From: Promethearchaeota archaeon
GTDB lineage: Archaea > Asgardarchaeota > Lokiarchaeia > Sigyniarchaeales > SOKP01
DNA: 64,000 nucleotides
Assembly (NCBI GenBank): GCA_029838195.1
Contig: JALGVJ010000006.1
Span: forward strand, 97,093-161,092
Direction of reading: 5' to 3'
Part shown: positions 48,433-60,360 of the stretch, piece by piece
How the letters are laid out: the number at the start of each line of letters is the position of its first letter
How positions within the stretch are numbered: position 1 is the stretch's first letter
The notes under the pieces: model-generated
What the model was told of the DNA's origin: nothing
The model's input: the letters and a program-made list of their open reading frames with translations, nothing else
The model's database searches: none
Translations under genes and position numbers: made by a program

Positions 48433-48993
48433 TTATTTCTTGAGTTTGGGTTTAAAAGTTATTGCTGGTTTTGTTCTTTCTGAGTAAGTGAATTTAACAG
48501 CCTCTTTAACGTCGCCATATCTTTTTTTTAATTCTTCTAATGGTCCAGCATCCAGCGCTCTTGTTCTACACGCTTCAACGCAAATGGGCTTGAGATCTAG
48601 AGCAAAACGATCCGCACAAAAATTGCATTTTTGCATTATGGAGCCGGGTTCAGCTCCGAATTGAGGAGCATCATAAGGACACGCTTTCAAGCATTTTGAA
48701 TCACATTCTTCGTTGCCAAGACATTTGCTTGAATCTACCAAAACAATGCCATCTTTTTCTCGCTTAAAAATGGCCTTGACAGGACAGACGGCTAAGCAAA
48801 CGGGATCAATACAATGATAACACGGTTGAATGAGATAACTCACGAACACATTAGGAAACGTTCCTTCTTCGTTATATAATACTCGAATCCATTTCATTGG
48901 CCCTGCAGGAATGTCATGCCAGTCTTTACAGCTTATCTCACACGCATGGCATCCCGTGCAGCGTGTTTGGTCGAAATAAAAGCCGACTTGCAT
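48433..48993 (-). CDS. dmsB: DmsB-like 4Fe-4S subunit
   Basis: GFYFDQTRCTGCHACEISCKDW, CYHC..PVC..VCP, C.GN..C...C..ACPY, KCNFC..R...PICVEAC. Confidence 0.88.
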   Translation of the reverse strand: MQVGFYFDQTRCTGCHACEISCKDWHDIPAGPMKWIRVLYNEEGTFPNVFVSYLIQPCYHCIDPVCLAVCPVKAIFKREKDGIVLVDSSKCLGNEECDSKCLKACPYDAPQFGAEPGSIMQKCNFCADRFALDLKPICVEACRTRALDAGPLEELKKRYGDVKEAVKFTYSERTKPAITFKPKLKK

Positions 48994-51221
48994 TAAATAT
49001 CGCCTCCCTCATATTTTTTAACTTCAGCAAGGCAAGATTTCAATGCTGAAGCGCCACATAGCGCATGAGAATCATTTGTCAATACATTAACACATCCACC
49101 TCTATCTATTCCATTTTCATCCGGGTCGTACCAAGCACCTTCGTAAATACTGATAACGCCGGGAATGATTCTTTCCGTTAGCCAAGCAGGAATGAGTAAT
49201 TTACCCCTATCGTTGAACACGAGCACCATATCACCATCTTGAATTCCTCGTTTTTTTGCATCGATATGGTTGATCCAAACACGGTGGGGTTCAACTTCTC
49301 GCAACCAATCGACGAGATACATTTCTGAATGAACCCTGTTGGGGGGATGAGGTGAGAGCACTTGCAGGGGATATTTTTTGATGAGAGGATCGAAGCGATC
49401 TTCTGGGGTTCTCATATATTTTGGAATGGGCGGATTATTTGGATCATTTAAATCAGCAATGCGTTGGGAAAAAATCTCGATTTTCCCGGAAGGCGTTTGA
49501 AAAGGGTGGTTTTCGGGATCTTCAATTTCTTTTCTAAACGCCACGTATGGTTCCTCTAGCTCCAAGCGATGAATGCCTTCTTCCTTGAATTTTCTATAAT
49601 TTCGTATATTTTTACGGGTGTCAGCCGGCATTTTTAATAAAGCTTTTAAGGCTTTATCCACATCGGGATACTTAACAAAATCCTCGATTCCCAATTCATC
49701 CGCTAATTCTTCGGCGATTCTTAAATCCGATTTACATTCTCCTAAGGGCTCAATGGCTTGATTCATGAACGTAAAATAAGGACCTGAAGGCCATGGGCGC
49801 GCCAAATCACTTCTTTCTGCCATTGTCGTGACGGGTAATACAATATCAGCATATCTCGCCGTGGGAGTCAAGAAAATTTCTGAAGAGACCATGTATTCTA
49901 ACTTCTTAAGAGCTTCTGCAGCCTTATTAGTGTTTCCTAACTGATTTAAGAAATTATTATTCACGAACCAGGCAAATTTTACATCGAATGGATAACCGCC
50001 CTTGGTACCTTTTAAAATCGCGTCGAAAATTTTATTAGTATGACAACGAGTGATGAATCGATCCTGAAGATTAACAGATCCTCGCACTGACCTTCCCGTA
50101 TCTTCTACGGGATTCTTGTAAGGTGGGGGGATGCGAGCGCCAAAAAACATGTGGCCGTAAGGAATTCCCATTAAGCCGCCAGCTGCACTGCCACCAGGAC
50201 GTCCAATATTTCCGGTCATGGCTGTCAGGGTGATGGCACAGCGGTTATAAAGACTCCCAACTGCGCTGCGTGCGGGACCTTGGCAATCCATTAAAGCAGC
50301 TGGTTTCGTGGTGGCATATTCTCTTGCTAAATTTGTAATGGTTTCGGCAGGAACGGAAGTAATTTGTTCCGCCCATTCAGGCGTTTTAGGAATGCCATCC
50401 TCCTTTCCCATGACATATTCTTTGAACTTATCAAACCCAACCGTGTATTTATCCAAAAATGCTTGGTCATGTAAATTTTCCTTTATCATCACGTATGCCA
50501 TGCTGACCATCATCGCTGTATCCGTTCCGGGATAAATGGGAATCCATTGATCTGCTAATAACACTGCTGTGTCATGATAGCGGGGGTCAATACAAATTAT
50601 TTTTATCCCTGCTTCCTTGGCTTTCACTAAATTATAAATGGTATCGCTACCAGAAATCATTCTGGCAGGATCCCATCCCCAAAGGATGATTAATTTCGAA
50701 TTCAAGAGATCTTCTCGACTATGGCCGACAAAGGGTGAGCCATACATGACTTTCGTGGCATAAACCGCTCCTTCTGAAGAAACATTTCCGTAATGAGTAG
50801 AATAGCCCCCAAATTGGGTGAATAATCTCATAAGAGCAAACATTCCATCATGAAACGCCCCTAAATAGCCGCCACCCATAGCAAGAAAAATGCTTTTATT
50901 ACCATAAGTTTCCTTTATTTCTTTTAGCTTTTGGGCTATCTCTTTTAAAGCTTCATCCCAAGTAATTCGTTTAAATTCTCCCTTTCCTTTTGGCCCCACC
51001 CGTTTCAAGGGATATTTTAATCGCTTGGGATGATAAATGTACTGACGCAAGGCACGGCATCGCATGCAAGCCCTGAGTTGTCTTGGTTCTTCCCCATCAT
51101 CCCCTTCAATCTTGATAATTTTGCCGCCTTTTACATGAAATTTTAAGGGACAGCGCCCTCCACAATCAAACGCAGAACTCGTGCGGATGATTCTTTCAGA
51201 ATCATTTTTTATTTCCTCCAT
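48993..51221 (-). CDS. DMSO-reductase-family molybdopterin oxidoreductase catalytic subunit (DmsA-like, no Tat signal)
   Basis: DCGGRCPL, LRACMR, RLKYPLKRVG, HYGNVSS (Ser ligand), PGTD.A, YADIVLP, RVHS, EGAWY. Confidence 0.9.
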   Translation of the reverse strand: MEEIKNDSERIIRTSSAFDCGGRCPLKFHVKGGKIIKIEGDDGEEPRQLRACMRCRALRQYIYHPKRLKYPLKRVGPKGKGEFKRITWDEALKEIAQKLKEIKETYGNKSIFLAMGGGYLGAFHDGMFALMRLFTQFGGYSTHYGNVSSEGAVYATKVMYGSPFVGHSREDLLNSKLIILWGWDPARMISGSDTIYNLVKAKEAGIKIICIDPRYHDTAVLLADQWIPIYPGTDTAMMVSMAYVMIKENLHDQAFLDKYTVGFDKFKEYVMGKEDGIPKTPEWAEQITSVPAETITNLAREYATTKPAALMDCQGPARSAVGSLYNRCAITLTAMTGNIGRPGGSAAGGLMGIPYGHMFFGARIPPPYKNPVEDTGRSVRGSVNLQDRFITRCHTNKIFDAILKGTKGGYPFDVKFAWFVNNNFLNQLGNTNKAAEALKKLEYMVSSEIFLTPTARYADIVLPVTTMAERSDLARPWPSGPYFTFMNQAIEPLGECKSDLRIAEELADELGIEDFVKYPDVDKALKALLKMPADTRKNIRNYRKFKEEGIHRLELEEPYVAFRKEIEDPENHPFQTPSGKIEIFSQRIADLNDPNNPPIPKYMRTPEDRFDPLIKKYPLQVLSPHPPNRVHSEMYLVDWLREVEPHRVWINHIDAKKRGIQDGDMVLVFNDRGKLLIPAWLTERIIPGVISIYEGAWYDPDENGIDRGGCVNVLTNDSHALCGASALKSCLAEVKKYEGGDI

Positions 51222-51311
51222 CTCTATCTCTTTTCTTTCTTTTATTTCGAAATATTCATTAATTTCTATTATAAATAAGTAAATTAAAACAAAATTTCAT
51301 GAAAAAAAAAA

Positions 51312-52472
51312 TTATTTAAGTTTTGGAGGTGGAATTCTCACTACTTTTATTTCAGGCAATTTCCTCAGCGCAATGGCATTTTCTGGACAAAAATGAGCAC
51401 ATGTTCCGCACCCGATACAATAATCTCCCATTATTTCTGCTTTACTTTCATTATTTAATTCAATAACGCTTGTATGGCAATGTTCCACGCATGTACCGCA
51501 TCCCACGCAGAGCTCTTGATTAATTTCTGCTTGAAAATTAGTGGCATTCACGGTGGGGGCAATTAAATTGGTACTTGCTTGTCCACAACAGCAAGTACAG
51601 CAATTACAAATGCTCGTTTCATCTCTACTCAAGTCAAAATTGGGATGATAAGCTTTATGCACGAGGCCATCTTTTTCCGATTGTTTCATTATTTCTAAAG
51701 CTTCACTTTTCGAGATTAACCTACCGAAGCCATTTTCAGCCACGTGGCGGGCAGATTTTCCAAAAGTAAAACAATTTTCTCTGAGAGCCGTTTGCTTGCA
51801 GGGCTCTCCTATGGCATCTTTATGGTTTCGACAAAAACAATGACCCACTGCGATGACATCGAACTTTTCAATCAATTCTTCAATGGTTTGGGAGGGTAAA
51901 ATTTGTTGAGTTGGGACTTCTAAATCTTGATCAACGATTATTTCGATTTCCTTCCCCGTCGGCTCGTTGTCATAGAAAGGAATGGTTCTGTCAATGGGCG
52001 GTTGTTTTTCCATCATTTTAAGAATGGCATCATAATTATTTTGGGCAAATTCTCTTAATTCTTGCTGTAATTCCAAAAATAATAGTGCTAATTTCTTGTT
52101 TTCAGGAGTTAATTCAAGCTTTTTCATGAAAAGATATTCAAACAGGCCGACATTAACGAAGGGGAGGACTCTATAGACCATGATTCCCTTGCTACTGGGT
52201 TGATTAAACATGATGCCTTTTTTTGCTAAAGCAGCGGCTTTTTTTTTGATCTCTTCTTCCGATAATTTACTTGATTTTTTTAATTCTTCCATAGTTTGAG
52301 ATTTTTTCCTTTTAAACGCCATGAGAAAGTCCAAGTCTTCTGGGGTGGCTACATGTTTTAAAATAGCCATCACTTTATCAGTTATTGGGAGGGGGGTTCC
52401 GCCTGCTCCTGCGATGATTTGAGCCACTTTTTTATATTTAGATTCAGTTTCATCATTATGAGTTATAGCCAT
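51312..52472 (-). CDS. Ferredoxin-domain (2x4Fe-4S) protein with N-terminal winged-helix-like region
   Basis: CFCR, CNCCTCCC, CVGCGTCVEHC, CIGCGTCAHFCP; start placed at MAITHN. Confidence 0.85.
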   Translation of the reverse strand: MAITHNDETESKYKKVAQIIAGAGGTPLPITDKVMAILKHVATPEDLDFLMAFKRKKSQTMEELKKSSKLSEEEIKKKAAALAKKGIMFNQPSSKGIMVYRVLPFVNVGLFEYLFMKKLELTPENKKLALLFLELQQELREFAQNNYDAILKMMEKQPPIDRTIPFYDNEPTGKEIEIIVDQDLEVPTQQILPSQTIEELIEKFDVIAVGHCFCRNHKDAIGEPCKQTALRENCFTFGKSARHVAENGFGRLISKSEALEIMKQSEKDGLVHKAYHPNFDLSRDETSICNCCTCCCGQASTNLIAPTVNATNFQAEINQELCVGCGTCVEHCHTSVIELNNESKAEIMGDYCIGCGTCAHFCPENAIALRKLPEIKVVRIPPPKLK

Positions 52473-52597
52473 ATTATATTTTTCTTTTGGAGAAAATAAA
52501 TAGTTTTTCAATGGTTAGATTTTCCATTTTTACCTTCCCTTGTCAAATAGGGAGGGATTTATAAAAAGAAGCATGGCATTATTTCATTGATTTCAAA

Positions 52598-53449
52598 TCA
52601 AGAAGAAGACACGAATAAGAATAAGAGAAGGAGTAACACTACGATAAGAATGAGTGGAATGATTAAATATATTTTTTTTGAGGTAAACTTAATTTTTTCG
52701 TGATGTTGATTTTCATTAAAGTCTTGAGTATTGGTGTTCATGTCTGCGGAAAAATAACTAATCTCTTCGCGAGGAAGCATTTCTTCTTTATTGAGAGGTG
52801 CCTGAGAAATAAGCTGTTTTTCATGTTTTTTATATTTTGATATTGCTTTTTGAATTATTGCTTGCGCTTCGGGGGGGAGATCGTGCTCATCTACCTCGAT
52901 CCCCTTAGATAGGAGGTCCAAGCCAACGGTTAAATTATAATCATGACTAAAGTCTAAATTAATGAATCTCTTGATCAAAGATGATTTTCCTACTGCTGCT
53001 GGTCCGGCAAGAATGATTTTAAATCGAAAGGAACGACTACCATTCTCAGATTTTTGCATTTCTCCGAGGCGAGGTTTTAAATCCAAGAGCGCTGCGATGG
53101 AAAGCCGATAAAATAAGGTATTTACATTTATATTTTTGAGAGCCGAAGTTTCTATATATTCTAATAAATTAAATTTATTTACTTTCTGTACGATTTGTTC
53201 CCGTGAAATTATTTCTCCTACTTGTTCTTTGAGATCCTGCTTATTTCCCACCAATATAATGGGAATATTTCCCGCACGCTTTCTAATTTCTTGAAAATAT
53301 TGATCAATGGCATCAAATGTTTCGGGACGGGTCAAATCAAAAACTGCAGCCACGGCAGCCGTACCTTTAAGGAAATCTGATTTGAGAAAATCAAATCTTT
53401 TTTGTCCGGCTATATCCCACAAGCTCAGGGAGATTCGGGTTTTTATCAT
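52598..53449 (-). CDS. Circularly permuted Rab-like GTPase with C-terminal transmembrane anchor
   Basis: Motif order G3 (WDIAGQ, aa 11-16), G4 (NKQD, 69-72), G5 (ETSAL, 100-104), G1 (GPAAVGKS, 149-156), G2 (T174); TM at aa 260-280. Confidence 0.85.
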   Translation of the reverse strand: MIKTRISLSLWDIAGQKRFDFLKSDFLKGTAAVAAVFDLTRPETFDAIDQYFQEIRKRAGNIPIILVGNKQDLKEQVGEIISREQIVQKVNKFNLLEYIETSALKNINVNTLFYRLSIAALLDLKPRLGEMQKSENGSRSFRFKIILAGPAAVGKSSLIKRFINLDFSHDYNLTVGLDLLSKGIEVDEHDLPPEAQAIIQKAISKYKKHEKQLISQAPLNKEEMLPREEISYFSADMNTNTQDFNENQHHEKIKFTSKKIYLIIPLILIVVLLLLLFLFVSSS

Positions 53450-53655
53450 TATATTGCGTGCTTTTTTCTTTACTTCGAATTAGAAATGAAATTCATTATT
53501 AAATGGATGAGGAGATTCTTCATGGATAATTAATAAAAAAATCATGCTGCATGAAAGTGTTAATGGTTTGATAGGAGATAGAAATTATTAGAGATATATA
53601 AAAACTATTATTAATATTGGAAAAAAATAAAAAATAAAATAGAGATGATAGGGAG

Positions 53656-55737
53656 TTAATTAAAATCTAAGGCATTAATTTTTTCTTCTACATGTTGTTC
53701 TAACTCATTTATTTCTTGTTCCAGGGCTTTTAATTCACGACTGATTTCTTCAAATCGTTGTTCTTGGCGGCTTAATTTTTGAACATAATTTTCTCTTAAC
53801 CGATTTTCTTGGGTAGAAGTACCTAAAACAGAAATATTTTCTCTTAATCTTTCTTGTTCCTTACTCATTTGTCCCCTTTCATTTTCGAGAGTAGATTTTT
53901 TTTTCAATAAGAGGTTTTTCTTTCCCAGTAATTCACTAATAATTTTCAATTTAGATTCTAATTCAGCATCAATAAATTTCTGGTTTGTATAAAAAGCGAT
54001 TTTGCTCATGAAATAGTCTTGATCCCAATTCCATAGATAATGGCTGTAGTAATTTTCCTTTTGTTCTTTAATCTTGAAAGAAAGAGCCTCTTTCGGCTTT
54101 AATTCGAGTTTAAATCGCCAGTAATTAGGAGTTTCTTCAGGTTCGACGGGGCTTTCTTTAATTTGGTATCCCGAAGTTTTAGGATGATCGAGATATAATA
54201 ATTTATTCTCGTCCGTTTTATTTTTAATCTTGTAGGTCGAATAAGTATTTGAGTAATAATATTCGTAGCAATAAGCTCCTTTAAAAGAAATCTTATGAAT
54301 TTTAAGATCTTGGGAAGTTTCTTCGTGAAATATTACAATGGCTTGCTCAATCGCATAATTGAGGATGCGAACATCACACTTGTTTAAAAATGGAATGATT
54401 GCTTCCCCTGCTAGATTATTATCGTAAATAATGGTGACAGGCCCTCGTTCAATGGCTAATTCCGTATTATTTTCAATTTCTAAACACGCATTTGGATGTT
54501 CCTCGCACTCTAATTTATTATAAAGAAGAATTCTTTTAGCTTTAATCTCTTCCGTCAGAATAGGTACTAAGGCGCTCTGTTTTCGTAAAATTGTAACAGG
54601 AGTAGTTATATTATATTCAAATAATTCTCCCAATGCCTTGGTTTTTGCAGAAGTTTGAGCTGCCAATTTATCACGTAAAGTTTTATCATCCATCGCCATT
54701 AAAGGCTTGGGAGCGGGCGGTGGAGCGGGTTTCGGAGCCATTGCTCCTGTCGCTATCTTAGCTTTTTCTAAAGCGCGTTTTTTACGGGGCATGTATTCCG
54801 CTTCTGCTTTCATTTCATAATCCATGAATTCTTCAGCTTCATATCCTTCTTCTATCTCCGTAGGGCGTGCGCCATGAACTTTTGGTGGTGCTATTTTGGG
54901 TCTTTCAATAAAGATGGGATGATAAAAATCATAGATAAAAGAGACGGGCATTCCGGCAATTAAAGTAATTTCAATATCTTCCCAATCATCATTTGTAGTG
55001 TTTTCTATTAAGGCATATCCCGCTAAAAGACATTTTTCTTCTTGAGCTTGTTTCTTGCTCATGATAATTCTATAACTAGTTTTCCAAATCGGCGTTTCTC
55101 TCAAATAGCTTACTAAAATTTCCCGTTCAACTGAATCCTCTCCATGGGTTTTACAATGGATAGTAATCTTTTTTGAATCCTTTTTCTTGCTGGCTATAGA
55201 AGCGTCCAGAAAAAATTTTAACTCTTTATTTAGATCCTCATTTAAAATTTTCAAGGAAGAAATCTCTGAAAAAGGTATTTTTGCAATGGTATTATCTTCT
55301 TGTAAAATAATTAGCAATTTTTCCATTATCGTCTCCTCTCTAATAACTTTTTTTATCATCTCAAGGCCCATTATCGTTCCGCGAATAGATTGGGACGTAC
55401 CAATGCGTAATTGTATGGGGGCACCTTTAATTTGAGTAATTAAAGAGGAAAAGCTATCGATATCAGGAATATCCAACATTATAGATTTTAATAATTGAGA
55501 AGCCTCTAAAGCGGCATCATAAGAAATAAAAGAGATATAACCCTTATCGCTCGTATCAAGGGCAAAAAGACTCTTTAATACATCATTCATTTCTTCAACT
55601 TTAAATTCTAATTCGAAAATACCATTTCCCTTTATTTTTCCTTGATGGATAAAATATGAGATGCCATGTTTGAAAATAATGAGCTTGACAAACTTGAGTT
55701 TATTTTGTTCTGCCATGAAAAATATATAAAAGACCAT
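53656..55737 (-). CDS. DUF4139-like protein with C-terminal coiled coil
   Basis: IFKHGISYF, MNDVLKSL, SYL..PIWKTSYRI, ENTTNDDW.DI.ITLIAGMP, GELFEY, RKQSALVP. Confidence 0.8.
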   Translation of the reverse strand: MVFYIFFMAEQNKLKFVKLIIFKHGISYFIHQGKIKGNGIFELEFKVEEMNDVLKSLFALDTSDKGYISFISYDAALEASQLLKSIMLDIPDIDSFSSLITQIKGAPIQLRIGTSQSIRGTIMGLEMIKKVIREETIMEKLLIILQEDNTIAKIPFSEISSLKILNEDLNKELKFFLDASIASKKKDSKKITIHCKTHGEDSVEREILVSYLRETPIWKTSYRIIMSKKQAQEEKCLLAGYALIENTTNDDWEDIEITLIAGMPVSFIYDFYHPIFIERPKIAPPKVHGARPTEIEEGYEAEEFMDYEMKAEAEYMPRKKRALEKAKIATGAMAPKPAPPPAPKPLMAMDDKTLRDKLAAQTSAKTKALGELFEYNITTPVTILRKQSALVPILTEEIKAKRILLYNKLECEEHPNACLEIENNTELAIERGPVTIIYDNNLAGEAIIPFLNKCDVRILNYAIEQAIVIFHEETSQDLKIHKISFKGAYCYEYYYSNTYSTYKIKNKTDENKLLYLDHPKTSGYQIKESPVEPEETPNYWRFKLELKPKEALSFKIKEQKENYYSHYLWNWDQDYFMSKIAFYTNQKFIDAELESKLKIISELLGKKNLLLKKKSTLENERGQMSKEQERLRENISVLGTSTQENRLRENYVQKLSRQEQRFEEISRELKALEQEINELEQHVEEKINALDFN

Positions 55738-56456: not shown

Positions 56457-56518
56457 ATTTTTTTGTAGTTATTAGATTTTTTCACCTTTATTTTTTTGTA
56501 GTTATTAGATTTTTTCAC
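56457..56518. repeat. 29-bp direct repeat, period 33
   Basis: atttttttgtagttattagattttttcac at 56457-56485 and 56490-56518. Confidence 0.9.
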
Positions 56519-57027
56519 GCTTGATCTTTCAGGATGGCGAAAATTTCCTCCTCCAAGGTCGAATTTTCTTTCGGACCTTCAATAATTCTTCCTAAAAATT
56601 CTCCTCTTGAATTAAAGAGATAAAAGGTCGGAATGGCTTGTAAATCGAATTTTGGATCGAGGGCTTCTGGAGGGGAACGTTTTTCATGCCATGGAATCTC
56701 TCCTTTTTTATGAAAAGCATTTACCATGATACCATAAAGGATTCTCAATTCAACTTTAACTTCATGCTGTAAATTTTCAACAATTTTTATCATGCGGGGA
56801 ACATTTAAAATACAATCCTTACACCATTCTGCACCTAATGCGGCAATTCTCAATGATTCCCCTTTAGTCTTCAATAATTTAATAATTTCGTCCATTATTT
56901 CCTTTTTCGGTTCATAAGATTCATGATTTTTCCTTATTACTTCCTTTTCACCATATTTTTCTTTATAATCTTCAAGGGATATCATCGGAGAAGTAAGATC
57001 TGACCATTTTAATGAGGGAACTTTCAT
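56515..57027 (-). CDS. Thioredoxin-family protein
   Basis: GAEWCKDC..NVP and cis-Pro AIPTF. Confidence 0.85.
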   Translation of the reverse strand: MKVPSLKWSDLTSPMISLEDYKEKYGEKEVIRKNHESYEPKKEIMDEIIKLLKTKGESLRIAALGAEWCKDCILNVPRMIKIVENLQHEVKVELRILYGIMVNAFHKKGEIPWHEKRSPPEALDPKFDLQAIPTFYLFNSRGEFLGRIIEGPKENSTLEEEIFAILKDQA

Positions 57028-57126
57028 CGTGGTTTTATAATAAAAGTGGAAACAAAAATCTTATATTTATAAATTATAAGAAGAAGTGCACGCAGAGAAG
57101 TGAAATTTTACCCCTTATAGAACTAT

Positions 57127-57660
57127 TTAATAAGGAGATTGATAATCAAGAATCAGCTTTATGATGGAATCAAAAACTTTTTCCACATTTTCGCCCGTCC
57201 TGCTTGAACATTCTATAAAATCATCCGTACCCCTTGATTCTGCTATAATTTTTGCCTCTTCACTTACTACTTCTCGAAATTCATTCAAATCGGATTTACC
57301 CCCCACTACTATGATGGGGATCTTTGGTCGTTTCTTTCCATCAAATATTTTATTCACGATGAGCAACCAATCATCAATATGTGTTAAAGTAGAATAGTTA
57401 GTGATGTCATACATGAAAATACCTCCACTAGCACCGAGTATATAAGAAGGAAAGAGAAATCGGAATCTCTCTTCGCCACCAAAATCCCAGATTTGCAGTT
57501 TTATTTCATTATTGGCTATCTTCATGGTTTTTACATGAAAGTCTACACCAATCGTTATTTTTATATCTTCTATGAATTGATTTGTCATGTATCTATGCAT
57601 TAAACTGGTTTTACCCGTTCCAGAATCACCAAAAATTACTATTTTAATCGTTTCTAACAA
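57127..57660 (-). CDS. Rab-like small GTPase
   Basis: GDSGTGKT, TIGVDF, WDFGGEERF, GKSD, ECSSR. Confidence 0.93.
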   Translation of the reverse strand: MLETIKIVIFGDSGTGKTSLMHRYMTNQFIEDIKITIGVDFHVKTMKIANNEIKLQIWDFGGEERFRFLFPSYILGASGGIFMYDITNYSTLTHIDDWLLIVNKIFDGKKRPKIPIIVVGGKSDLNEFREVVSEEAKIIAESRGTDDFIECSSRTGENVEKVFDSIIKLILDYQSPY

Positions 57661-58056
57661 GTTGAGTCTAACACCATGAAGGGGTTTAAACGTATTAGAT
57701 AGAATAAAATTATTAGTTAATAAAGTTTAATATTTTGATTTAAATTTTGTTATTTCCTCTTATTAATTCCGTAGTTTATATGATAACTAATTGAGGAGAA
57801 AGAAGCATGATGTAATAAAAGAAGGAAAAAGAATTTTTTTAATGAGTTTCCCATCTACAGACCATGAAAATAAATGGAGATAGTTTTGGATCATGAATAT
57901 AAGCCGTGGTTTTTCCAAATTAATGGTGTTATTATCCTGAATAACTTAATAACCATTTTGAGCAATAAAAGAGGTTTTTAATTAACTCTTAATCATAAGA
58001 GATCATAGGAACTTTATTTATTTAGCATGTGAAAGAAAAATTTTAAGGTTCATGAG

Positions 58057-60360
58057 TTAAACTTTAAGAATTTTTTCCAAGAGAAATAGTGATCCATTTT
58101 TATCCAATGGTTCATTTAAATTTCCGCATTTAGGAGAGATTATGCAACCGGGACAGCCATTTGGAGCCGTGCATTTACATTTTTTTATTAAATTGTACGT
58201 CATGTTAAATAATTCATTAATATTTTCAAATAGCATTTCTGAAATGCCAATCCCTCCTCGAAATGCATCATAAATGTATATAATGGGTTGTTGCTTTACG
58301 GGATCAAATTCAATGGATACGCCTCCTAAATCCCAACGGGAAATTTGGGCTAAAGTAGGCGCAATCGCAATCATGGCATGCTCTATGGCATGGATGGAGC
58401 CTCCAAGATCATGTCCTTTCAATTCTAATTCTTTTTGAAAGCTAAATGGGATTAAGAACCAAAAAGCTTGCGTATCGAATTCGATAAGGGGAATATTTTC
58501 TAATGGGTTGCGAGCAAGGATTTCTTGAGTCATTGAATCAATGATCTTATAAGAATAATATTGATGCTCCACCTTAACATTTCCAAAAAAACTTTCAATA
58601 TCCTCACGAGGACCAGCATTTTTAGATGAAAGAATTTCCAGCGTGGTAATGTCCGTGTGTTTAAGAGATTGCGTGTAAAAATCCACATCCGCTTTCGTTA
58701 TATAGACCCTTTTATTGTCAATATCCAAATATTCCACTAAATAAGTTTCTGCCTCATATAAATAGACTGCTCCTTGGTGCAAGTCTCGAAACACGTAGCT
58801 CTCATCTTCCAAAGTAAGCACGCTTTCCTTATTTCCGGATTTCAATATAATTTTATAACTCCTATTAGAAAGATTATTTAAACCATAGCGAGCGTTAGGA
58901 AAGAACTTGCCATTCCAATAATATTTCCCACCTCTCTTTATTAAAAGAGATTCTTCTTCCAATTCTTTTAAGTAATTCAAATAGGTTTCTTTATCTTCAA
59001 TTCCAAGCACGTCATACTCATTTTCTTGTAAAGGAATTTCTTTAGCAGCACAACAGAGATTATTTTTAATAATATATTTATTTTTTAAGGAGATCAATAC
59101 CTCTTCTTTAATGGGTCCAAAAAGCACCTCGGGATTATGAATGTAGAAGAAATCTAACGGGTTTTGCATGGGAATTAATGTGGAGATGGAAAGCTCTTCT
59201 CCCCTTCCGGAACGTCCTATTTGTTGATAAAAGCTGGAGATCGTCCCGGGAAATCCAGAGCAAATCGTAGCATCAAGAGTCCCTATATCGATGCCCAATT
59301 CTAACGCATTCGTGGAACTGATTCCCAAGATTTCCCTGTTTTTAAATTGAGACTCAATTTTTCTCCTGGTTGCCTTGCTAATTCCTGCTCGATAACTCGT
59401 GATTTTATCGCTCAGCTGGGGGAGCGCCTTTTTACTCCACATTGCTAATAATTCAGCCATTTTACGTGATAACGTGAAGGTTAAGGTCTGAATATCGTGT
59501 TTTAAATGAGAAATGAACAAATTTTTAGTTTCTTGATGGGGAGAGCGATATTTTTGGGAATATTCATCGAAGGGTAAGTCCCATAAAACCACGTATTTTG
59601 CGCCAGAAGGTGAATCATCTTCATCTATCACGTGAAATGTTTCGCCGGTCAATTTCTCGGCAAATTTTTTAGGATTATTAATGGTTGCACTTGATAAAAT
59701 CCACGTGGGAGTACAATTATAAGATTTTAGAATTCGTTTTAATCTTCTCAAGAGAAAAGCAAAATTAGATCCAAATATGCCTCGATACACGTGGATCTCA
59801 TCCAAGACGATATATTTTAAATTTTTCATGATTCTGGTCCATTTTTGGCGGAACCACGATAAATAATAATGCAAGCCATAAGGATTAGTAATGATGATAT
59901 TTGCTTCCTGGAGTACCTTCCGTTTTTCAGCAGGCTCTATATCTCCATCATAAACACCCACTCTGCTAGTTTTAATGCGAGTATCAGCCATGAGCGCCTT
60001 TAACACGTTAAATTGATCCCGGGCTAACGCTTTCGTGGGAAATATATAAATTGCTGTCATGTTTTCATCTTGTAAAAGCGAGTGAAGCACGCACAGATTA
60101 TAGCAGAGAGATTTTCCAGAAGCCGTAGAAGTGGAGATAACGCAGTTTTTCCCTTCGAGAATGAGATTAATAGCTTTAGCTTGATGCCCCCATAATTCGA
60201 TTTGATTATTTTTCAACCAACGAGAAAGCCGAGGATCTAAGGGTTTTTCCAAAGTTCCATATCTTGCTTTTTTGGGTGGAAAATACTGAACATGGGTGAT
60301 TTGATCGGCATAATACTCTTCAAATTTAATCGCCTCAAGGAATTGTTTGACATCGACCAT
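58057..60360 (-). CDS. SF2 DEAD/DEAH helicase with C-terminal DUF1998 (Hrq1/YprA/SftH family)
   Basis: TASGKS, PTKALARDQ, DEIH, SAT, TNALELGIDIG, QQIGRSGR, C-terminal CKC...GCPGC...C. Confidence 0.93.
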   Translation of the reverse strand: MVDVKQFLEAIKFEEYYADQITHVQYFPPKKARYGTLEKPLDPRLSRWLKNNQIELWGHQAKAINLILEGKNCVISTSTASGKSLCYNLCVLHSLLQDENMTAIYIFPTKALARDQFNVLKALMADTRIKTSRVGVYDGDIEPAEKRKVLQEANIIITNPYGLHYYLSWFRQKWTRIMKNLKYIVLDEIHVYRGIFGSNFAFLLRRLKRILKSYNCTPTWILSSATINNPKKFAEKLTGETFHVIDEDDSPSGAKYVVLWDLPFDEYSQKYRSPHQETKNLFISHLKHDIQTLTFTLSRKMAELLAMWSKKALPQLSDKITSYRAGISKATRRKIESQFKNREILGISSTNALELGIDIGTLDATICSGFPGTISSFYQQIGRSGRGEELSISTLIPMQNPLDFFYIHNPEVLFGPIKEEVLISLKNKYIIKNNLCCAAKEIPLQENEYDVLGIEDKETYLNYLKELEEESLLIKRGGKYYWNGKFFPNARYGLNNLSNRSYKIILKSGNKESVLTLEDESYVFRDLHQGAVYLYEAETYLVEYLDIDNKRVYITKADVDFYTQSLKHTDITTLEILSSKNAGPREDIESFFGNVKVEHQYYSYKIIDSMTQEILARNPLENIPLIEFDTQAFWFLIPFSFQKELELKGHDLGGSIHAIEHAMIAIAPTLAQISRWDLGGVSIEFDPVKQQPIIYIYDAFRGGIGISEMLFENINELFNMTYNLIKKCKCTAPNGCPGCIISPKCGNLNEPLDKNGSLFLLEKILKV

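Follow-up and report, generated by a model that had tools for sequence, protein, structure and literature searches.

Circular permutation in a Rab-like small GTPase of a Loki-type archaeon that ends in a predicted transmembrane helix

Can a small GTPase still be a working switch when its G domain has been opened between strands 2 and 3? The question is raised by one open reading frame in a 64,000-nucleotide stretch of the genome of a Promethearchaeota archaeon (assembly GCA_029838195.1, contig JALGVJ010000006.1), here called the window. The encoded protein has all five Ras-superfamily motifs, G1 to G5, in an order other than the canonical G1-G2-G3-G4-G5. A preliminary description had read it as a new circular permutation in a tail-anchored, Rab-like GTPase. 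Here, we find it highly probable that the protein is a functional permuted Rab-like switch, held to the membrane in this organism by a transmembrane (TM) helix, whose family arose once and probably independently of cpRAS, the permuted RAS-family GTPases of eukaryotes.

Gene and motif order

The permuted GTPase (P0001) occupies a whole open reading frame with an ATG start at 52598..53449 on the minus strand, as do all window features given below, and has 283 amino acids with a C-terminal TM helix. Its first half runs from strand 3 through helix 5 (residues 4-116; 53102..53440), corresponds to positions 46-156 of the Pfam Ras profile (PF00071), and holds G3 (DIAGQ, residues 12-16; 53402-53416), G4 (NKQD, residue 69; 53234-53245), and G5 (SAL, residue 102; 53138-53146). 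A linker then leads from helix 5 to strand 1 (residues 123-138; 53036..53083), with the family motif LDLKPRLGE at its start. The second half (residues 144-190; 52880..53020) corresponds to profile positions 1-47 and supplies strand 1, the P-loop, helix 1, switch I, and strand 2, including G1 (GPAAVGKS, residue 149; 52982-53005) and G2, which is Thr174 in the switch I stretch YNLTVGLD (52928-52930). Pattern searches found G3, G4, G5, and G1 once each, and G2 was read from the family alignment. When the halves were scanned separately, PF00071 matched the first with an E value of 6.9e-26 and the second with 6.9e-9, and the TIGR00231 small_GTP model likewise matched the protein in two stretches. 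The Ras-domain matches are therefore split and in swapped order, which is what the preliminary description had proposed to look for with HMMs. They bear out its account of a protein that starts at strand β3, carries each motif once in the order G3-G4-G5-G1-G2, and results from a genuine permutation opened at the β2-β3 turn.

Strand 2 is followed by a family-specific basic helix (residues 193-216; 52802..52873; AlphaFold2 pLDDT ~90), a weakly conserved spacer that is predicted to be disordered (residues 217-257; 52679..52801; pLDDT <50 over 229-257), and the TM helix, a putative tail anchor recognized by hydropathy and as an AlphaFold2 helix (residues 259-282; 52604..52675). No other Pfam domain was found in the 283-aa protein or in its relatives of 316-755 aa. 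Upstream lies an intergenic spacer of 206 bp with 24% GC and a TATA-like TTTAATAAT (53450..53655, minus strand), and an in-frame stop stands 10 codons 5' of the ATG. A six-frame look at this spacer found no remnant of a P-loop, DxxGQ, or NKxD motif, in agreement with the earlier reading that no P-loop remnant precedes the start.

Relatives, trees, and genomic setting

A search of 5.8 billion proteins gave 872 homologs at E≤1e-3. The best 120 of these score 255-604 bits, cover 62-100% of the query, are 197-286 aa long, and, besides the query's own cluster, are 47-84% identical to it. A protein-atlas feature search with the permuted GTPase returned generic Ras clusters only. More than 130 homologs from independent assemblies have this start, to within a few residues of strand 3, and this end after strand 2. 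In alignments of 18 and 62 members, all sequences begin near strand 3 (consensus xITLSLWDxGGQ), and helix 5, the conserved LDLKPRLGE linker, strand 1 with the P-loop, switch I (family consensus YKLTVGLDF), and strand 2 follow in succession. Nine residues are invariant in the 62 sequences (D12, G15, Q16, K70, S102, G149, G154, K155, and T174), and together they make up the complete nucleotide-binding and catalytic set. In addition, P192 and E194 are invariant in the 18-sequence alignment and at least 90% conserved in the larger one. Compared with an 84%-identical ortholog (locus L011), dN/dS is 0.125 over residues 1-125 and 0.21 over residues 137-216, values that point to purifying selection on both halves; over residues 217-283, the spacer and TM helix, it is 0.54.

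Among small GTPases, the protein is most similar to the Rabs, ahead of Ras, Rho, Arf, and Ran. Of the best 60 solved-structure sequence matches displayed per half, almost every one is a Rab or a yeast Rab homolog (Ypt, Sec4), with Rab11, Sec4, Rab6, Ypt1, and a “Thorarchaeota Rab” leading for the first half and Rab7L1, Rab7, Rab9, and Rab23 for the second. The Rab-like label of the preliminary description thus holds for both halves. The window's own genome (G000) has one permuted copy versus 41 canonical Ras-superfamily open reading frames, 11 of them on the window's contig. The closest canonical paralog, a 177-aa protein on contig C72, is 49-51% identical in both halves.

Phylogenetic trees were built from canonical sequences and from permuted sequences re-ordered by script; these are quick-search trees, and their supports are to be read with caution. 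The first tree placed 46 of 47 permuted rows in two clades (SH-aLRT 98 and 94), both in one weakly supported neighborhood with the paralogs on contigs C72 and C84. After long branches had been removed and tandem proteins split into their domains, a second tree joined all 21 archaeal permuted rows in one clade (SH-aLRT 99, with sub-clades at 98 and 95, under the same caution), and the canonical rows nearest to this clade include the own-genome paralogs on C72 and C84. The sole outlier, P0187, branches among tandem double GTPases, apart from the archaeal family. It is a Rab7-like protein of 243 aa with the same G3-G4-G5-G1-G2 order (WDTAGQERF..., GDSGVGKTS, YKATIGADF) and an Asn-rich tail, and it represents one of two things, a gene model that has been truncated or a further permutation that arose independently.

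It could be objected that the open reading frame encodes no functional permuted protein and is instead what remains of a recently truncated tandem GTPase, or an artifact of assembly or gene calling. Tandem canonical double and triple small GTPases (P0134, P0122, P0128) do match the query across their domain junctions. They came from 1.84 billion cluster representatives of any length, searched exhaustively with HMMER, among which more permuted members (243-755 aa) also turned up. The position of P0187 among the tandems, perhaps as a truncated gene model, points the same way. However, when only longer proteins were searched, no close tandem relative of the permuted GTPase came up, the start is preceded by a stop codon and a spacer free of motif remnants, and the archaeal permuted rows form a clade of their own. 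The preliminary description had itself raised recent tandem truncation and misassembly as possible undoings, and more than 130 homologs turned out to share the start and order. We take this sharing, the selection on both halves, and the lack of a close tandem relative to exclude truncation, frameshift, and misassembly; an artifact of this kind is scarcely credible here.

A functional permuted protein raises the question of how the permutation arose. In all 16 of the tandem double GTPases analyzed (~320-415 aa; P0134, P0144, P0148, and 13 others), the N and C domains are mutual sisters, which indicates that internal duplication of small GTPases is frequent and has happened in many independent events. 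Duplication followed by trimming is therefore a plausible route to the permuted form, as the preliminary description had suggested, and no direct intermediate between a tandem GTPase and the permuted form was found among the sequences searched. The family would have arisen once, when a canonical Rab-like paralog in an ancestor of one Loki-type order became permuted, most likely by tandem duplication and subsequent loss of the outer segments. Two proteins met along the way deserve mention for themselves. P0134 groups with the canonical paralogs nearest to the permuted clade and has NNAD/SNAD in place of NKxD, and P0272 (658 aa), from Promethearchaeota, joins CDC48 N-terminal domains (PF02933, PF02359) to a Ras-like GTPase domain.

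How widespread is the family? We searched 301 GTDB species genomes of the phylum with two queries, one per sub-clade, and scored the 10 best candidates per genome. Both queries found the same 34 of 301 genomes. With the window's own genome excluded, these are 31 of 68 in family f1 and 2 of 7 in family f2 of the same order; none of the 225 genomes in 28 other families had a permuted GTPase among the 10 best candidates scored per genome. The main sub-clade corresponds to f1 and the long-form sub-clade to f2, whose members are 59-64% identical to P0133. In the genomes searched, the permuted family is confined to one Loki-type order. Within f1 its range is patchy (g2, 22/22; g4, 4/4; g7, 2/5; g5, 1/27; g3, 0/4). 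Five genomes that are at least 98% complete (from g5, g3, and g6) have no permuted copy; all 54-83 candidates were scored, and they have the canonical P-loop only. The absence of the gene from many complete genomes of the same family means that it is dispensable, and it would have been lost repeatedly after its origin. The preliminary description had looked to other Asgard genomes for homologs, and the search narrowed these to two families of one order. Submitter labels of Thor-, Odin-, and Hodarchaeota had suggested an Asgard-wide range, which we rejected on the GTDB sample. Given that the family was not found outside one order there, such labels on matches of roughly 55-63% identity are probably unreliable.

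The gene has a conserved setting. Directly upstream, on the minus strand, is a gene for a 693-aa protein, weakly DUF4139-like with a C-terminal coiled coil (53656..55737), and beyond it lies a conserved cluster (56515..60360) with a Thioredoxin_9 protein (56515-57027), a canonical small GTPase of 177 aa three genes upstream of the permuted one (57127-57660), and an Hrq1/MrfA-like helicase (58057-60360). In 56-84%-identical relatives, the order is helicase, canonical small GTPase, Thioredoxin_9 protein, ~680-aa protein, permuted GTPase. The 693-aa neighbor belongs to a Loki-type family of ~680 aa that is ~60% conserved, and it is kept in genomes without the permuted GTPase. In those genomes, it is followed by a small acidic protein, which in L011 lies downstream of the permuted gene. 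The permuted gene thus occupies a syntenic slot that is either filled or empty.

The small acidic protein (67-71 aa) is a coiled-coil protein with a CxxxxxCxxC-like motif. It comes after the permuted GTPase in L011 (6978-7193) and L012, and directly after the 680-aa protein where the permuted gene is absent (L033, 3736-3939, and L034, 3657-3869 are further coordinates for it); it is not at this position in the window. The 693-aa neighbor has a β-rich N-terminal half, a Pro/Ala-rich disordered linker, and a coiled-coil hairpin at residues 591-688. Its AlphaFold2 model is poor (pLDDT 61.8), the ESM Atlas gave TM scores of 0.42-0.47 to bacterial DUF4139 clusters, and Foldseek against the PDB gave nothing below an E value of 1e-3. 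We considered it as a VWA partner of the cpRAS kind and rejected this, because Pfam gives only the weak DUF4139 match and the protein persists where the permuted gene is absent. On the other side of the permuted GTPase, downstream at 48993-52511 (minus strand), the window encodes a 4Fe-4S protein of 399 aa and a molybdopterin oxidoreductase of 742 aa. In close relatives (L011), only short fragments of the two are present (Fer4, 79 aa; Molybdopterin, 129 aa), and these genes may have decayed or been rearranged there.

Predicted fold and membrane anchor

The permuted protein is predicted to form one complete G domain. An AlphaFold2 model made with the 62-sequence alignment has a pLDDT of 81.9 and a pTM of 0.71, with both halves above 90 and low confidence at switch I (residues 169-176). 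The first half runs through strand 3 (3-13), helix 2, strand 4, helix 3, strand 5, helix 4, and strand 6 to helix 5 (109-122). After the linker come strand 1 (139-148), the P-loop and helix 1 (155-163), strand 2 (179-187), the extra helix (193-216), the disordered spacer, and the TM helix (259-282, pLDDT >90). Foldseek aligned ~110 residues of the model to Rab43, Rab6, Rap1b, and others at 1.4-2 Å. In an exhaustive VIA-align search, canonical Rho and Rab chains cover model residues 2 to 122 or 127 (Z 12-13). Known permuted GTPases cover the model from residue 15 or 24 to residue 184 or 186, with 120-146 residues aligned (Z 9-12.1). They include the Lsg1-like chains of pre-60S particles (8pv1_Cd, 3jct_m), YlqF (1puj, 3cnl), YqeH (3h2y), and RsgA/YjeQ/YloQ (6h4d, 2yv5, 1t9h), and their alignments span the junction of helix 5 and strand 1. 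The two sets of alignments overlap and tile the whole G domain, and so the P-loop half is placed in the model as a G domain requires. The single complete G domain that the preliminary description expected of a structure prediction is therefore what the model contains.

We expect the two halves to assemble into an ordinary G domain that would bind and hydrolyze GTP, given the complete set of invariant motifs, with a linker of ~15 residues connecting helix 5 to strand 1. The Ras fold has its canonical N and C termini and its β2-β3 turn on one face and the nucleotide pocket on the opposite one. A permutation at this turn should thus be sterically easy, and a tether after strand 2 should leave the domain on roughly the side of the hypervariable tail of Rabs.

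The permutation may instead have left a folded and conserved protein that no longer cycles nucleotide, a pseudo-GTPase or scaffold in which switch coupling is disabled. Such an outcome would be in keeping with Anand et al., who, as quoted in the cpRAS description (PMC2430557), held that a break between β2 and β3 should impair or prevent folding, and with the low confidence of the modeled switch I. However, the P-loop GK[S], the switch I Thr, the Gln of DxxGQ, NKxD, and SA are invariant across the family, and invariant nucleotide-contacting and catalytic residues are not expected of a dead GTPase. We thus regard loss of nucleotide cycling as unlikely, and a functional GTPase as the better reading of the conserved motifs.

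If the protein is a switch, where does it act? The chain opens with strand 3 of its G domain and has no N-terminal signal sequence. At the other end, the basic stretch KIKFTSKK precedes a hydrophobic stretch (~residues 262-280), and the protein closes with ...LFLFVSSS, three residues after the hydrophobic core. A single TM helix within ~30 residues of the C terminus is the arrangement of tail-anchored proteins. From this and the model, we infer that the query is a tail-anchor-type membrane protein that would be inserted with its G domain in the cytoplasm. There is no prenylatable C-terminal Cys motif (CC/CXC/CCXX) after helix 5, which runs on to strand 1. The TM helix would keep the switch permanently tethered in this organism, and, with a TM anchor in place of a prenyl group, a GDI-like factor would presumably not extract it, which would leave control to the nucleotide state alone. 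In Pfam scans, residues 229-280 (52610-52765, minus strand) also gave a sub-threshold match to Synaptobrevin, an R-SNARE with a TM segment, with E values of 0.004-0.0095 and 16-17 bits against a cut-off of 26.4. We put this match down, probably, to the composition of the TM helix and its basic juxtamembrane stretch.

A census of TM helices in 132 permuted-type sequences shows that the anchor varies with length. The 74 short forms (<245 aa) lack a TM helix, and their last element is a basic helix. Among mid-length forms (245-300 aa), 49 of 51 have a C-terminal TM helix, and of the seven long forms (316-755 aa), five carry a TM segment that lies at the C terminus or close to it. Overall, ~40% of the permuted family, the query included, has a C-terminal TM helix. 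With 74 of 132 members lacking one, membrane anchoring is not part of the conserved core of the family. The tail anchor of the preliminary description therefore stands for the query, and as a family trait it is restricted to part of the members.

Comparison with known GTPases

The preliminary description called the permutation new and gave G4-G5-G1-G2-G3 as the order of known permuted GTPases. That survey was incomplete: cpRAS, whose motifs run G3-G4-G5-G1-G2 and whose chain is broken between strands 2 and 3, had already been published (Elias and Novotny 2008, Biol Direct 3:21, PMC2430557). There, cpRAS is described as eukaryote-only and RAS-family, with a “TIE” G2 motif, and as part of proteins of 840-3900 aa with VWA/Sec23-24-trunk or COG2373/α-2-macroglobulin-like regions (PMC2430557). 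It also answered the folding objection of Anand et al. The archaeal protein resembles cpRAS in motif order, break point, the joining of helix 5 to strand 1, membership of the Ras superfamily, and the retention of all motifs. By the published description of cpRAS, it differs in being Rab-like (TVGLD), stand-alone at 214-284 aa (up to 755 aa in the sister clade), in many cases TM-anchored, and restricted to Loki-type archaea.

It is tempting to derive both from one permutation event, inherited vertically from an Asgard ancestor or passed on by transfer, because their motif order and break point are identical and no prokaryotes are more closely related to eukaryotes than the Asgard archaea. In that case, cpRAS, possibly present in the last eukaryotic common ancestor, would join the eukaryotic signature proteins that trace back to Asgard archaea, and the TM-anchored archaeal form would show how a Rab-type identity switch can be fixed on a membrane without prenylation. 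However, the “TIE” motif and large multidomain hosts of cpRAS stand against the LTVGLD switch I of the archaeal protein, the nearly exclusive Rab identity of its best 60 solved-structure matches per half, and its lack of any other Pfam domain. Moreover, its nearest relatives in the trees are canonical archaeal paralogs, and the family was found in one order of the phylum only. A shared origin is thus very unlikely in our judgment. A Rab-like, stand-alone form makes an independent origin probable, and, from family affinity and motifs, the archaeal permutation is likely to be independent of cpRAS.

No archaeal permuted Ras-like GTPase was described in the full-text literature searched, subscription journals aside, or turned up in a term search of the main Asgard small-GTPase structure paper. 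Apparently, then, the archaeal permuted Rab-like family is undescribed, and the topology of its permutation is known. The argument of Anand et al. had a single earlier counter-example, cpRAS. A second, strongly conserved, and probably independent case would make the β2-β3 break a recurrent and viable one, in a protein that is small, stand-alone, and easy to express. The archaea most closely related to eukaryotes have an expanded small-GTPase repertoire, to which the family is an unusual addition. A Rab-like switch held by its own TM helix instead of a lipid would also be relevant to the marking of membrane identity at a time when prenylation and GDI cycling did not yet exist. The family's patchy range in one order and frequent loss argue against a core role.

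The other permuted P-loop GTPases, YlqF/YawG (YRG), RsgA/YjeQ, and YqeH, share with the archaeal protein a helix 5 that continues into strand 1. In contrast, all of them run G4-G5-G1-G2-G3 and are opened after strand 3 and G3, whereas G3 is N-terminal in the query. Furthermore, they are ribosome-assembly factors with extra RNA-binding domains, universal and outside the Ras superfamily, and in structural alignments with them, the sequence similarity is only 14-26%.

Canonical Asgard and eukaryotic Rabs (the Thorarchaeota Rab 7EZB; Rab11, Rab6, Rab7) are the best matches of both halves in sequence and structure, and they share the motifs WDxxGQ, NKxD, ETSA, and TxGxD and the predicted role of a membrane-associated switch. 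Their motif order is linear, and the eukaryotic ones use C-terminal geranylgeranylated Cys motifs and GDI cycling. The permuted protein, unlike these, has no C-terminal Cys and carries a putative integral TM helix after strand 2.
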